A DNA stretch of 60,166 nt, filler included, from Sphacelaria rigidula (taxonomy: Eukaryota), in the NCBI GenBank assembly GCA_964200075.2. It is 8 parts of 8 records of this genome, joined end to end, with 100 filler letters (N's around TTAATTAATTAA, not from the genome) between each part and the next. Parts side by side here need not be neighbours in the genome. Positions count along the whole stretch, not along the records: positions 37,668 to 45,100 come from CAXNAA020014940.1; 7 more parts are not named here. One strand, 5' to 3'. Made by a program: the position numbers and the translations under genes. The notes under the pieces are model-generated. The model was not told where the DNA came from and did not search any database. It saw only the letters and a list, made by a program, of their open reading frames with translations. Below are positions 40,304 through 43,493 of this stretch, in pieces. The stretch's first letter is position 1. Each line of letters starts with the position of its first letter.

Positions 40304-41417
40304 TCAGCCGTGTCTTTGAGGCGGCGGTAACGGCCGAACGCCTCGATATCCCGTCACAGCGGACACCCTCGTGGCCATCTCCGCGTCCTTTTGCTCGTAC
40401 TCGACGCTCTCGCGCAGGGCCGTCGCGCGTACTGTCAGCCGATGCACTCCCCCCCCGTCCGCCGTCGAAACCACCACCAAGTCACCGACGTCGGCGTCCA
40501 CCTCCGCCTCCACCACCGCCGGCACGCACGCCTGCACGCGCGCCAGCTCCGCCCCGGTCATCACGTCCAGCAACAGCAGTAACCCGTGGCAGCCCACGAA
40601 GAAAATTACGTTTGTGTTCTCCGTCCACTGTCGGAGGAATACGGGGGGAGATACCACAGGCACCGTCTCGCCGCCAGCGTCGCTGTTCACCACTTGGTAC
40701 GCAGAGGAACCGCGCAGGTCCTCGTCCGCAATAACGTGCGTCGTGGCAATGAGCCACCCGTCGCCGTGCGCCGCCAACCGGCCCAACGCCTCCTGCCCCT
40801 CCGCCTGCGACAACGATCGGTCGAGGTCGAGTACCCGCAACTCGGCCGCACCGCTGTCGCCCCTCACAACCAACCCCAGGATATTCAGCGGCGGATTGGA
40901 CCCGGGCATGGTCATCAGAGCGGCCCCCAGCGCCTCAAACTCGAACGTTTCTCGGCGCTCGAAGCTGTAGAGATCGACCTTCACAGGTCCTCCACCGCCC
41001 TCGATGCTGGTGCTATTGCTGCCGTAGCCATTTCTCCCACCGCTCTTCCCACTGTTTGCCGCCGCCATCATTGCGCTTCCCCTCACCTCGCAGCCGCCCC
41101 CGCCCCCGTCGGTGTCTGCAACGACGCACAACAGCATTCCCCACCGACCGTCCGCCGACGCCTGATAATCGTACACGCGGTGCCGAGTCCCTCGTTGAGT
41201 TAACGTCCGCCGTCGTGCAAACGCTTGCCGGGGTCTTCGAAGGCGTGCCGCGGCATCCCTCTCTTGCGCGGCTTCCCCCGAAGCACCGCCACCCGATACG
41301 CCTTCGGCGCTGTGAGCGGCATCGCTCCCGGGACTGCCGCCAGCTGGGCTGTCAGAAACGCTCCAGTAGAACACAGCGTTGTGGGTCACCAACGCCAATC
41401 CCCAAGGAGACAGCCAT
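40304..41417 (-). CDS. Terminal exon: remainder of the clathrin terminal-domain-like propeller and linker helix
   Basis: Acceptor ttgttccag. Splicing gives [22 protein letters not shown] (clathrin [22 protein letters not shown]), then [18 protein letters not shown] and VIFFVGCHGLLLLLDVMTG. TGA at 40304-40306. Confidence 0.87.
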
Positions 41418-41846
41418 CTGGAACAAATATTGTCCGTAAGTCGCGAGAGAAATTGGCAGGAATGAGACTATCAGCGTGTTTTTGTGTTTGCTGAGAGCCT
41501 TGTCTTTAAACATGCAACAGGCAACAAACTCGCGCCGTATACGCACCAACATCTCAACGCCGAAATGAACGGACACTTTCTGGTATGAACCAGGCCGTAC
41601 ACGTCGGTATCCAAGCAAAAGCAACAGTCTTTGATCTCTTGACCTTCCAAGGTTCCTCGTTGGACGTCAGCAATACAGGGTCTCAAAAATGTGCGAATTG
41701 TCTCGTGGAACCACAGCGCTTGTAGAAATAGGGGTATTTCGACCTGAAGGGGCCGTGTCACTCATATGCCACATCAAGGTGCAGCGTGGCCGAGTCACAA
41801 CCAGGAACACCAGTCGTAACTCGTGGAGACTACCATAAGCGATAAC

Positions 41847-41962
41847 TAGGCTTCTACTTATTATGCTAGCACGGTTTTACTTAATAGCGACCCCGCACTT
41901 TTTTCAAGATAAACGAAGTCTTAAACTTCAAAAACCGTGCTAGCATAATAAGTGAAAGCCTA
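41847..41962. mobile_element. 116-bp hAT-type MITE in the intron of the kinase-clathrin gene
   Basis: ~32-bp TIR TAGGCTT..ACTTATTATGCTAGCACGGTTTT. Perfect 8-bp TSD GCGATAAC at 41839-41846 and 41963-41970. Confidence 0.9.
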
Positions 41963-42221
41963 GCGATAACCGCGCCAGAATTACACGCAGTCGTACATGC
42001 GCAAACAGTTCATCGCCCATTGGCTACATGTTTTAGTTCTGAGTAACTTTTGCTACAATGCCATATCCATCTGACTCCCATCTACGCCTACAGCAATAAT
42101 CCTCCAGACCTTTGCGGAGCTGTTCACGGACGAAAACGCGCAACGATACCATGGATCTCCAAGAGTTTGAACCTAATTTTCTTCACATGAAACCCTTCCC
42201 CGTCCCCTTAGCACAGCTCAC

Positions 42222-43493
42222 CGCCACATGCATAGCTCCGTTGCCACCGCAAGCTCCTGCAATCGACATCGTCGCGGAATGCTGAACACGTGTAGGCAAC
42301 CGCCGCCGTGGACTGCAATCACTGACTCCGACTGATTGGGACTCATGGCCGCTCGATCGGCCGCGGCAGGATACCTCACAGTTCGTCCCCGGTGCCACAA
42401 ATCTAACACAGACACGTGCCCCGCATCCTGCTGAGTCTCGACGTCTTCTGGTGCCGTCGCTCGTTCCAATGTCGTCGTGTTGCCCGCGTACCCCGCCTCT
42501 CCATCGACCGTCTCGGGGGGACGTCCGGTGCAGCACACACAGAGCAGACGGGCGTTGGACGACAGAACGCCACCGCCAATCGCTGCACGCAACACTCCCC
42601 CGAGCTCCACGCCATATTCGGAGAGGGACATCGATCGCGTACACGAAATCGAGCCGTTGCGTGTCTGCCTTCCTTCCATTGCAGCTTTCCCCATCAATGG
42701 ATGTCGTTGTCCTGCCGCCGAGCCTTGAGCCACCTCCGGTTCCGCTCCGGTGCCGCAGACAGGCACACCTGCGGGCCGTGCATCCCACCAAGAATTAACC
42801 CCGACCGCGGCGGCGCCACCAACGCTGGTAGCAGCAGACGCAGACGAACGGTCGCCAAAGGCTGGCATCAGGTCGACCAACTCCTCCGTTTCGCTGCCAC
42901 GCGGTGTCACCCGCGTTCCGGGCGATACCACCGCCGCCACCGCCGTCGCTGCGGTCGCCGGAGACCGGCTGTTCGCATCTCGGTCGGACTGCGCCGACGC
43001 CCCAGTGATCGACCCACTGCTCGTCACGCTGCCTACATGACCTTCGGCAGCCACCGCTTCGAAGTACGGCGGGGGCTCCGATCCTGCGGAGGGTGTCTTT
43101 GTCGATCCCTGTATTACCGTATCATACGCGGGAGGGGGTGGCGGCACCGGCTGCCCTTGTTGCTGCTGGTGCAACAGTGCCCCCCCACTTGTATTCTCCC
43201 CACCTATTCCACCGGCGGCCACTTTCACTCCGCCAACCGCCGACCATACCTTGCTATTGCTCCCAGCCCCACTCCCGCTCCTGCCGTTGACCATATTGCT
43301 GCTGCTGCTCGTGCTGTGCACTGGATCGAACAACTGCAGTAAGTCTACGCTTTGTGAGGTTCCTGTGCCTGCCGCCGAACTGCCGCTGCTCCCGTGAGAA
43401 TGGTCGTTTTTCTGCCCGCTCTCGTGTATCGCGCTAACCTTGTCCAGCACCTCCGGCAGCGTCGGCCGAGCGCCGGGATTTTCGGCGCAACAT
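42222..43493 (-). CDS. Exon: probable kinase C-terminus, low-complexity linker and first part of a clathrin terminal-domain-like propeller
   Basis: Acceptor tgtccag, donor GTGAGC. CCAENPGARPTLPEVL resembles kinase subdomain XI. [46 protein letters not shown] aligns by eye to clathrin [39 protein letters not shown]. Confidence 0.85.

Follow-up and report, generated by a model that had tools for sequence, protein, structure and literature searches.

A brown-algal gene for a probable kinase joined to a leg-less, clathrin-like propeller

Clathrin, kinases and propellers in described systems

The clathrin terminal domain is a docking hub for adaptors, accessory proteins and several viral proteins, acting as a module that takes up peptides in its grooves. 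To our knowledge it is regarded as unique to clathrin, and we know of no characterised protein that unites a kinase with a leg-less clathrin propeller. In the heavy chain (terminal-domain structures PDB 1BPO, 1C9I, 5M5R and 9C0Z) the domain comprises a propeller of seven blades with the first linker helices behind it, and it lies at the N-terminus of a protein that goes on to leg repeats and a trimerisation domain and assembles into triskelia. Kinases of the NAK family that act on the clathrin machinery (AAK1 and GAK) are physically coupled to this domain, binding the propeller through short peptides. Going by the title of one paper, clathrin reportedly also activates the AP2 mu2 kinase. Among the Foldseek matches discussed below, the title of PDB entry 9F8T describes the terminal domain in complex with the AAK1L C-terminus.

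The sole published case that we found of a clathrin propeller and a kinase in one polypeptide is the CLTC-ALK fusion of human tumours (fusion C31;A20), and the accessible part of the source ascribes its activation to oligomerisation and localisation (PMC5742812). CLTC-ALK is somatic, with clathrin and its leg repeats N-terminal and the ALK tyrosine kinase C-terminal, whereas the brown-algal protein described here is the product of an evolved gene. Brown algae also couple kinases to propellers in the Phaeoexplorer receptor kinases, which the accessible text describes as membrane-localised with an extracellular beta-propeller (10.1101/2024.02.19.579948). In the present gene, by contrast, the propeller follows the kinase, is clathrin-like and is accompanied by no membrane segment as judged by hydrophobicity; the words 'clathrin' and 'ankyrin' have no occurrence in the main text of that study.

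The window analysed is a stretch of 60,166 nucleotides from Sphacelaria rigidula (GCA_964200075.2), made of eight parts joined end to end, and the gene lies on the minus strand of the part taken from CAXNAA020014940.1. Its product very probably consists of ankyrin repeats, a kinase, a disordered linker of about 250-300 residues and a leg-less clathrin-like propeller. As in clathrin, the propeller is seven-bladed, matches in collinear blocks and ends in the first linker helices; unlike in clathrin, it is C-terminal, behind the kinase, and leg repeats, trimerisation domain and triskelion are all missing. Whereas AAK1 and GAK reach the propeller through peptides, the brown-algal kinase itself carries it.

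Gene structure and the kinase end

The main features of the locus are as follows.

40304..40306, minus strand: TGA stop codon, directly after exon B
40307..41417, minus strand: exon B, the remaining propeller and a C-terminal helical stub
40346..40417, minus strand: C-terminal helices (LRESVEYEQKDAEMATRVSAVTGY), which the profile alignment matches with the beginning of the clathrin linker
41418..42221, minus strand: intron of 804 nt, GT...AG, low GC
42222..43493, minus strand: exon A, read from its open frame and splice sites; kinase tail, disordered linker and first propeller blades
42224..42652, minus strand: N-terminal part of the propeller, including the positions aligned with the clathrin-box groove (phmmer and profile alignment)
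43412..43492, minus strand: end of the protein kinase domain, subdomain XI (CCAENPGARPTLPEVLDKVSAIHESGQ), last 27 residues, known through orthologues
45101..45200, no strand: artificial spacer (N44-TTAATTAATTAA-N44), which bounds the DNA surely contiguous with the gene to 37668-45100

Exon A opens at an acceptor (...TGTCCAG|A at 43493) and runs to ...CMW plus two bases of a split Arg codon at its donor (CG|GTGAGC, after 42222), while exon B follows the acceptor TTGTTCCAG|A at 41417. The split codon is restored as CG+A, and the junction residues are identical in the orthologous P0010, P0017 and P0005. With splice sites intact, a spliced frame of 794 codons open throughout and a junction as in the orthologues, the initial annotation was correct in joining two exons in phase at these coordinates. 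In tblastn, residues 578-1019 of P0010 map to 43492-42221 (E=3.6e-71) and residues 1013-1389 to 41437-40313 (E=3.3e-150), and exon B is 99% identical to P0012. The intron position is common to other brown algae (P0014, P0015, P0019, P0023 and P0027), since open frames called there on unspliced DNA carry unrelated residues right before RWLSPWG. The gene is conserved across brown algae, and these two exons close its coding sequence. Exon A contains internal Met codons; it opens in mid-codon at its acceptor, and an upstream exon is therefore required.

Searched alone, the 27-residue tail gave no significant PDB match, and its description as a kinase subdomain XI-like end is instead borne out through orthologues with a full kinase upstream. 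The Ectocarpus sp. 4 orthologue P0010 (full length, 1391 aa) carries ankyrin repeats and a kinase ahead of its propeller; the equivalent of the tail is residues 578-604, and alignments of the P0010 kinase to BIK1 and IRAK4 reach residue 602. Identity to P0010 is 19/27 in the tail (70%) and 361/495 in the propeller, compared with 70/215 aligned positions in the linker (33%, with 99 gap columns), a sign of continuing selection on the tail. Complete kinase motifs (Gly-loop, VAxK Lys, HRD/HGD...N, DFG) are present in P0010, P0008 and P0009, and in the latter two, which are distant relatives, Pfam recognises both Ank and Pkinase (kinase E=4.6e-41 and 1.4e-30). Kinase and propeller are joined in P0006, P0008, P0009 and P0010, which come from different sources, and in the window a single unbroken exon runs from the last kinase helix through the linker into the first blades. 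Together, these sequences support a putative kinase fused to the propeller.

The best solved matches of the P0010 kinase are BAK1, SYMRK and BIK1 (E ~1e-39) and IRAK4 (1e-34), with BRI1, Pto and FERONIA also within E=2.6e-39 to ~1e-34; the kinase tail of the family profile gives weak PDB matches to BAK1, BIK1 and IRAK4. The 60 matches listed for P0010 comprise RLK/IRAK kinases and designed ankyrin proteins, with neither AAK1 nor GAK among them. RLK/Pelle-IRAK kinases are thus its closest solved relatives among the matches listed, and the brown-algal protein differs from them in having neither transmembrane segment nor ectodomain and in adding N-terminal ankyrin repeats and the C-terminal propeller. 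No hydrophobic stretch was found outside the propeller strands, the top 19-residue windows all being propeller strands and none lying in the linker. The gene product would be a soluble Ser/Thr kinase of the RLK/Pelle-IRAK type, and its likeness to AAK1 and GAK is one of analogy, not of NAK membership.

A motif search of both strands of the window found no kinase signature (HRDxxxxN, G-loop) beyond subdomain XI in exon A. With P0005-P0011 as queries, tblastn returned exons A and B, otherwise low-complexity or chance matches at E >1e-5, and no kinase or ankyrin exon. Pfam likewise recognised no kinase, ankyrin or clathrin domain in 103 upstream minus-strand open frames of at least 45 aa, nor in 102 of the 136 window frames of at least 100 aa (the other 34 overlap the gene or were covered by the upstream scan). 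The missing kinase and ankyrin exons carry little weight, because just 1.6 kb upstream of the gene is surely contiguous with it before the spacer at 45101-45200. These Pfam scans gave four sub-threshold matches at E <=0.05, including a Tim44 match at E=7e-4 whose open frame had no PDB match. Scans of the window for tRNA and Rfam families found nothing. Repeats are present upstream of the gene. When repeat ends were paired to see if the eight parts could be one continuous sequence with blocks reordered or inverted, the pairs did not fit.

The propeller, its end and its grooves

The product of 42224..42652 aligns to clathrin residues 46-112 with phmmer and to residues 45-136 with a family profile. 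This profile, built from 10 rows and run against the PDB, reached E=1.3e-16, and its 18 best sequences are all clathrin heavy chains. Searched singly, exons A and B each have a clathrin heavy chain as their best PDB match, collinear and weak (E=0.055 and 0.3); since both exons do so independently and the profile reaches its E-value, the match is beyond chance. Seven propeller motifs had been listed in the initial annotation, six of which were recovered when HMMER aligned the sequence to clathrin terminal domains of solved structure: ADRAAMSP with ADSAIMNP, LHVFSI with LQIFNI, VDLYSFERR with MQLYSVDRK, GLLLLLDVMTG with GYIHLYDLETG, an 11-residue motif with FAVRGQAGG-KLHIIE, and a 21-residue motif with its clathrin counterpart. 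The seventh was aligned by no tool. Blades 4-7 alone (P0004) gave no clathrin match by sequence in the PDB.

Structure prediction points the same way. The AF2 model of P0005 (pLDDT 74.1, pTM 0.78) has 29 strands and C-terminal helices, with long Gly-rich loops inserted in the propeller as low-confidence segments. The 25 Foldseek matches listed for it, at ranks 1-38, are all clathrin terminal domains (E=8.6e-24 to 4.3e-18), and the next fold follows at E=4.4e-9. Alignments to clathrin have 14-16% sequence identity, with target-normalised TM-scores of 0.71-0.79 against PDB entries that hold the terminal domain only. In the ESM Atlas the best clusters are clathrin heavy chain both by features (0.96, 0.93, 0.93) and by structure (TM 0.65, 0.62, 0.61). 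Pfam Clathrin_propel (PF01394), which the initial annotation had proposed as a check, did not match at E <=10 in the two window exons or at E <=0.1 in seven relatives, and the homology suggested from the window sequence was established by profile-against-PDB and Foldseek searches instead, with the ESM Atlas in agreement. By profile and predicted fold, then, the terminal domain of clathrin heavy chain has a diverged, seven-bladed homologue in this propeller.

The profile alignment extends to clathrin residues 359-360, terminal helix included, so that the helix noted before the stop as linker-like does align with the start of the clathrin linker. Helices are modelled at the C-termini of P0005 (453-482) and P0011 (781-802). 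In the window, TGA comes after a helical stub of about 24 residues and the protein ends about 35 residues past the propeller. This C-terminus is common to 24 of the 29 relatives, the remaining five ending earlier or being truncated; the Pfam clathrin leg repeat (PF00637) is found in 0/29, and the 12 downstream minus-strand open frames of at least 60 aa have no clathrin-family match. The earlier description of the protein as leg-less is upheld by these data: the propeller ends after the first clathrin-linker helices, with no legs. As leg repeats and trimerisation domain are both missing, we infer that the protein would be unable to build a triskelion or a coat.

The 29 relatives include six from named brown algae, among them the early-branching Discosporangium and Choristocarpus, and the family is present from the earliest-branching brown algae to the Ectocarpales. 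Most of its database entries are fragments, and the labels in the public records examined go no further than a serine/threonine protein kinase in general terms, a conserved unknown or an unnamed protein. In the Ectocarpus siliculosus reference, model P0025 (645 aa, labelled 'conserved unknown protein') lacks a kinase; it begins at a linker Met and, relative to P0010, has a deletion that takes out the propeller start, a shape that looks like a gene-model error. A literature search found no description of a kinase and clathrin-propeller family, and with database names generic or absent the architecture indeed matches no characterised protein that we know of, as had been suspected. Pfam-based annotation is blind to the propeller, and surveys of domain architecture will have overlooked the family.

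Four peptide-binding sites of the clathrin terminal domain are given in the accessible part of PMC5182127: the clathrin box (Q89, F91), the arrestin box (W164, L183, Q192), the W-box (Q152, I154) and the Royle box (F9, E11, Q14, Q16, N17), with mutation of Q89 weakening clathrin-box binding in clathrin. In the clathrin-box groove of the window protein F91 and I80 are kept as F and I and the basic residues K96 and K98 are R and R, whereas Q89 is replaced by H and T87 by C. The equivalent of Q89 is Q in P0005, P0006 and P0007; in some distant members F91 becomes Y or H and the positions of K96 and K98 are not basic. The clathrin-box groove thus appears partly conserved. In the arrestin box, where the alignment is weak, L183, S185 and R188 are identical, V190 is replaced by E and Q192 has no aligned counterpart because of a gap. 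No tool aligned W164 or the W-box and Royle-box positions. The most invariant segment of the family (MPGSxPPxNxL...ELRVLDLDxS) lies outside the clathrin sites given in the accessible part of PMC5182127.

Between kinase and propeller, the linker and its short motifs are arranged as follows.

42653..43411, minus strand: low-complexity linker of 253 residues, predicted disordered
42869..42880, minus strand: LVDL island (ELVDLMPAFGD), like a clathrin-box core by sequence likeness
43064..43075, minus strand: second PPxY (PPPY), kept in P0010, P0011 and P0025 (QPPPY)
43124..43135, minus strand: first PPxY (PPAY), with PPPY (P0010, P0011) and PPTY (P0006) as its aligned counterparts
43337..43345, minus strand: DLL motif (VDLLQLFD), DDLLGLFD in Ectocarpus

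The linker had been described as Gly/Ser/Pro-rich and about 250 residues long. Its length stands (253 residues, or 280 if counted from the start of exon A); its composition does not, Ala, Gly and Ser making up 13.9% each and Pro 7.9%. The DLL motif is a candidate member of a motif class from the endocytosis literature. The LVDL island has counterparts in Ectocarpus (ELVDLGQDFG), Discosporangium (GLDLLTGRDG) and P0008 (TLVDLLTGEE), and titles of PDB entries in the Foldseek match list name LIDL, LIDM and LLDL as peptides in complex with the clathrin terminal domain. In the AF2 model of the P0011 linker and propeller (mean pLDDT 47.7), linker residues 26-301 lie below pLDDT 35 throughout, with no confident island at the DLL, PPxY or LVDL motifs, and the middle blades are also poorly modelled; the predicted structure gives no support for a linker motif docked in cis.

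Docking and its alternatives

Our proposal is that the propeller would act as a peptide-in-groove docking module, as in clathrin, bringing the kinase, along with its linker and the motifs in it, to trafficking or endocytic proteins with clathrin-box-like peptides; the kinase may then phosphorylate the docked proteins or their neighbours. Taken whole, the reading of a conserved multidomain kinase whose propeller is a docking module has, in our judgement, slightly better than an even chance. That the propeller docks the kinase specifically onto clathrin-box-like peptides of trafficking proteins is put forward tentatively, its chances lying below even. The most serious alternative, which we consider unlikely but well worth weighing, keeps the same architecture and has the propeller repurposed, so that it no longer reads clathrin-adaptor motifs: it might bind the LVDL or DLL motif of its own linker and gate the kinase, or serve as a scaffold for unrelated ligands. 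Recognisable clathrin sequence similarity is kept in blades 1-3 only, Q89, T87 and V190 are replaced and Q192 is gapped, the segment that the family guards most closely is not a set of site residues named in the accessible part of PMC5182127, and a conserved LVDL-like island sits in the protein's own linker; retention of F91, I80 and the two basic groove positions in the window and in the Ectocarpales argues for a groove that may still bind such peptides.

The remaining explanations question the gene or the homology. Truncation or decay of the locus in this genome, with loss of the ankyrin and kinase exons and at most a linker-propeller protein made from an internal start, is improbable: those exons were found nowhere in the window, exon A has internal Met codons, the E. 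siliculosus model begins at a linker Met and repeats lie upstream, but the open frame and splice sites are intact, the kinase tail is far better conserved than the linker, exon A begins in mid-codon at an acceptor, and little upstream DNA is surely contiguous. A shade less probable again is that kinase and propeller belong to two neighbouring genes wrongly merged in some models, as the kinase-less P0025 and the many fragmentary entries might suggest; this is countered by the unbroken exon that spans kinase helix, linker and first blades, by the four proteins of different sources that join both domains, and by the internal Met start and deletion of P0025, which look like model error. Almost no credence can be given to a clathrin likeness due to chance or to generic WD40-like beta-propeller similarity. 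The silence of Pfam Clathrin_propel and the weak single-exon E-values would fit it; against it stand a profile that draws solely clathrin among its 18 best PDB sequences, a Foldseek gap of at least nine orders of magnitude that separates the clathrin terminal domains from every WD40 protein, the agreement of the ESM Atlas, and matches collinear over the whole domain, linker helix included.

A propeller that still reads clathrin-box-type peptides would make the protein, in brown algae and a few further relatives, a clathrin-independent adaptor-motif reader wired to an IRAK-like kinase, a prospect that we hold to be rather doubtful. Were it true, such a protein might act on adaptors by phosphorylating them, by competing for them or by sequestering them, and might bring in ubiquitin ligases through its PPxY motifs. 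Vesicle traffic would then have a regulatory layer not known before, and the clathrin terminal domain would be seen for the first time at work in a natural protein other than clathrin. In the preferred reading of a multidomain kinase with a docking propeller, a natural, conserved protein carries the clathrin hub with a kinase attached and without the legs that form the coat, and the terminal domain would be reusable as a stand-alone peptide reader. The family may then serve as an evolutionary experiment on which of the four terminal-domain binding sites matter, and in one of the major multicellular lineages it points towards an unstudied connection of signalling with membrane traffic.

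Gene structure and the surrounding blocks

Two extended open frames on the minus strand, one at 43519-42218 and the other at 41467-40304, have a GC content of 0.61-0.69, compared with 0.44-0.53 in the flanks and in the gap between them. The initial annotation had proposed that two exons within these frames splice in phase; all of the proposed sites were found, and the exons joined in silico give an open frame of 794 codons with no stop. The protein junction formed through the split codon (CG+A) recurs in the orthologous proteins of Ectocarpus, Hapterophycus and Choristocarpus.

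Features of the gene, in order of transcription (splice sites and stop as read in the sequence; a slash marks the splice point)
43493, minus strand: exon A acceptor, ...TGTCCAG/A
43492-43412, minus strand: kinase tail, 27 residues
43411-42653, minus strand: low-complexity linker, 253 residues
42652-42224 and 41416-40307, minus strand: propeller and helical stub
after 42222, minus strand: exon A donor, CG/GTGAGC
41417, minus strand: exon B acceptor, TTGTTCCAG/A
40304-40306, minus strand: stop codon TGA

Pro/Arg-rich antisense open frames of up to 228 aa (40297-41439, plus strand) overlap the GC-rich exon B, and look like by-products of codon composition, not genes.

Seven identical 100-nt spacers split the window into eight blocks (7434, 7434 and 6 x 7433 nt), so that the DNA certainly contiguous with the gene is 37668-45100, reaching 1.6 kb upstream of exon A. 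A dispersed-repeat match abuts exactly one side at 5 of the 7 spacers and both sides at none of the 7; at least 5 one-sided cases arose in 0.015% of 20,000 random placements of seven masks (P about 1.5e-4), so that blocks next to one another here may lie apart in the genome. A single repeat copy straddling spacer 1 suggests adjacency of those blocks, whereas the one-sided statistics suggest the opposite. The window begins and ends within copies of the repeat of about 515 nt, whose ORFs gave no Pfam match, and several block ends also lie in such copies. A GGC-rich low-complexity stretch adjoining spacer 1 (about 7265-7423, poly-Gly in translation) draws false tblastn matches when the family's Gly-rich loops are in the query. 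A Tim44-like ORF without a PDB match lies in another block, where it may form one exon of a different gene read from the same strand.

Spacers, repeats and other features of the window
7435-7534, 14969-15068, 22502-22601, 30035-30134, 37568-37667, 45101-45200 and 52634-52733: spacers (N44-TTAATTAATTAA-N44)
47175-47691, 57099-57599, 14539-14894 (inverted) and 52428-52629 (inverted): dispersed repeat of about 515 nt, copies 72-89% identical
1-145, 6854-6972, 7535-7749, 19200-19319, 22409-22501, 45028-45100 and 60087-60166: fragments of the same repeat
12570-12865, 15318-15545 and 36089-36364: further dispersed repeat family, 74-87% identity
24549-24858, 26647-26912 and 55176-55496: further dispersed repeat family, 74-87% identity
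45909-46328, with 2942-3319 and 4308-4620 related and inverted: tandem-like arrays, repeats of about 40-120 nt
56367-56417 and 56507-56557: inverted repeat, 51-nt arms, 88% complementary, 89 nt apart
49360-49875, minus strand: Tim44-like ORF, residues 31-80 matching below threshold (Pfam E=7e-4, 20.2 bits against a cut-off of 29.6)

A clathrin terminal domain lacking the legs

Pfam found no match in exon A or exon B. When each exon was compared separately with all PDB sequences (phmmer), clathrin heavy chain was the top match for both, exon A residues 365-433 matching clathrin 46-112 (E=0.055) and exon B matching clathrin 104-133 (E=0.3), while weaker collinear segments match clathrin 181-232 and 264-291. 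Searching 1.84 billion representative proteins with exon B returned 7 relatives (E<=0.001), and word-indexed searches raised the total to 29. The family is thus small, yet it is conserved across brown algae, with six named species (Ectocarpus sp. 4, E. fasciculatus, E. siliculosus, Hapterophycus canaliculatus, Choristocarpus tenellus and Discosporangium mesarthrocarpum). A 10-row family profile matched clathrin heavy chains in the PDB with E=1.3e-16, the best 18 sequences all being clathrin (18/18), and covered clathrin residues 45-136 as well as about 265-360, the latter taking in the first linker helix (clathrin side ...HKDPEMATRVSALTGY...). The relative P0004, which comprises blades 4-7 alone, does not retrieve clathrin by sequence search, so that the sequence signal lies mainly in blades 1-3 and in blade 7 with its helix. 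Six of the seven motif pairs on which the initial annotation had based the propeller, together with the terminal helix, were reproduced in phmmer and profile alignments; the remaining segment, YQASADGRW, was aligned by none of the tools.

Structure prediction used P0005, a 483-aa orthologue from Choristocarpus that shares 52-58% identity with the window protein, together with the family alignment. The model (mean pLDDT 74.1, pTM 0.78) has 29 strands followed by C-terminal helices, with low confidence in four long loops. All 25 of the Foldseek rows listed for it against the PDB (ranks 1-38) are clathrin terminal domains, with E running from 8.6e-24 to 4.3e-18 and target-normalised TM-scores of 0.71-0.79 against entries holding the terminal domain only; the next fold among the matches listed is a WD40 protein (4.4e-9). 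In the ESM Atlas the nearest clusters are clathrin heavy chain, whether ranked on features (0.96, 0.93, 0.93) or on structure (TM 0.65, 0.62, 0.61). Profile, Foldseek and ESM Atlas concur, and at the domain level the window propeller belongs, by fold and by homology, with the clathrin terminal domains. With single-exon matches at the E values found by phmmer on one side and this agreement on the other, a chance likeness to clathrin is next to impossible.

The absence of legs, also part of the initial annotation, is borne out at the C-terminus. About 35 residues separate the last blade from the stop, and the tail ...GVRPLPPPxRxx ends 24 of the 29 relatives, the other 5 being a few residues shorter or truncated models. 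The Pfam Clathrin repeat occurs in none of the 29 (our own scan of 7, precomputed columns for 22), and none of the 12 minus-strand ORFs of at least 60 aa in the downstream 37.8-40.5 kb matches a clathrin family. Whereas clathrin heavy chain has legs and a trimerisation domain, both were tested for and are absent from the window protein, and the whole protein is thus not a clathrin heavy chain.

In the available part of PMC5182127 the peptide-binding sites of clathrin are assigned to Q89 and F91 (clathrin box), W164, L183 and Q192 (arrestin box), Q152 and I154 (W box) and F9, E11, Q14, Q16 and N17 (Royle box). Clathrin numbering here is native, as checked against full-length chains aligning over 45-136. 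At the clathrin-box groove the window protein retains F91 and I80, with R at K96 and K98, H at Q89 and C at T87. Across the family position 89 is H in the window protein and in Ectocarpales and Q in P0005, in the Discosporangium protein P0006 and in the more distant relative P0007, while position 91 is F, Y or H. The arrestin-box region, weakly aligned, shares L183, Y184, S185 and R188 with clathrin, has E in place of V190 and leaves Q192 opposite a gap; no alignment was obtained at the W-box and Royle-box positions. Judged from these residues the clathrin-box groove is partly kept, and ligand specificity is not readable from them.

Kinase domain and linker

The kinase called in the initial annotation stands in the relatives, whereas in the window the 27 matching residues (CCAENPGARPTLPEVLDKVSAIHESGQ) are not significant alone and are preceded by no kinase exon. 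For the Ectocarpus sp. 4 orthologue P0010 (1391 aa), precomputed Pfam columns record both ankyrin repeats and a kinase domain. The best solved relatives of this kinase are BAK1, SYMRK and BIK1, each at E about 1e-39, and IRAK4 at about 1e-34, which places it among RLK/Pelle-IRAK-type kinases. Ankyrin repeats and Pkinase are likewise found in the distant relatives P0008 (1078 aa, E=4.6e-41) and P0009 (1272 aa, E=1.4e-30). In P0006, 57 kinase C-lobe residues lie ahead of the point where exon A starts, and the partial E. fasciculatus protein P0011 has its first residue exactly at the exon-A boundary.

Two readings would remove the kinase from the Sphacelaria protein. That gene models have merged two separate genes is very improbable: exon A corresponds to P0010 578-1019 and the P0010 kinase alignments end at 602, so that a single exon runs from the last kinase helix through the linker into the first blades, an arrangement hard to reconcile with two genes on the sequence comparison made here. 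A truncated gene copy in the Sphacelaria rigidula genome is also very improbable. Ankyrin and kinase exons are absent throughout the window (tblastn with seven relatives, motif searches, Pfam scans of ORFs), an absence that carries little weight because the spacers cut the window into blocks; identity to Ectocarpus is 19/27 in the tail, 361/495 in the propeller and 70/215 in the linker, and this conservation argues for a kinase tail still under selection. The kinase-linker-propeller architecture itself is assigned high confidence.

The Ectocarpus siliculosus reference protein P0025 (645 aa) begins at an internal Met of the linker and, relative to P0010, is missing the segment encoding the start of the propeller. 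This gene model looks split and mis-spliced, and as it stands the reference annotation does not reveal that kinase and propeller belong together.

The low-complexity linker has the length (about 250 aa) first ascribed to it, and its composition is Ala/Gly/Ser-rich instead of the Gly/Ser/Pro-rich described. It is predicted to be disordered: in the AF2 model of P0011, which covers both linker and propeller, its pLDDT is <35 and no confident island stands out. PPxY motifs, which bind WW domains, occur twice in the window protein (PPAY, PPPY) and in Ectocarpus (PPPY twice), with PPTY in Discosporangium. The clathrin terminal domain is bound by DLL motifs and by L-hydrophobic-D-hydrophobic cores; among these ligands only LIDL, LIDM and LLDL are backed by PDB titles in the Foldseek matches. 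Here a DLL motif (window VDLLQLFD, Ectocarpus DDLLGLFD) accompanies an LVDL island (window ELVDLMPAFGD, Ectocarpus ELVDLGQDFG, Discosporangium GLDLLTGRDG, P0008 TLVDLLTGEE). NPF, which binds EH domains, is present in Discosporangium and P0007. A few islands are conserved in a linker that otherwise varies, but short motifs also arise by chance and the pattern is no more than suggestive.

Relation to known systems and possible role

To our knowledge this is the first clathrin terminal domain outside clathrin. Database entries are mostly nameless or read 'unnamed protein product', 'conserved unknown protein' or 'serine/threonine protein kinase', and the propeller appears in none of the precomputed Pfam columns. 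A full-text literature search found no description of the ankyrin-kinase-linker-propeller architecture, and no published polypeptide with clathrin propeller and kinase besides CLTC-ALK, a somatic tumour fusion according to the part of PMC5742812 available, which unlike the brown-algal protein retains the legs and has the reverse domain order. AAK1/GAK are NAK-type kinases that attach to the propeller by way of peptides (title of PDB 9F8T), whereas the RLK/Pelle-IRAK-type brown-algal kinase carries the propeller itself; the likeness is one of logic only. Brown-algal receptor kinases in the accessible main text of the Phaeoexplorer preprint differ in that their propeller is an ectodomain, and 'clathrin' and 'ankyrin' have 0 occurrences in that text. 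The window protein joins known domains in a natural combination that is not known to have been described.

Coat formation would be impossible because legs and trimerisation domain are lacking, and no hydrophobic segment was found outside the propeller strands, which points to a soluble protein. In the main alternative reading, with the same architecture, the propeller may bind other ligands, or the protein's own LVDL/DLL motif as a regulatory latch, a possibility we consider unlikely though a serious one. The best-supported reading, itself tentative, is that the propeller docks the kinase on adaptor or accessory proteins via peptides. Through short peptides bound in its inter-blade grooves, as in clathrin, the propeller would bring an IRAK-like kinase and its linker of trafficking-type motifs to adaptor or accessory proteins.
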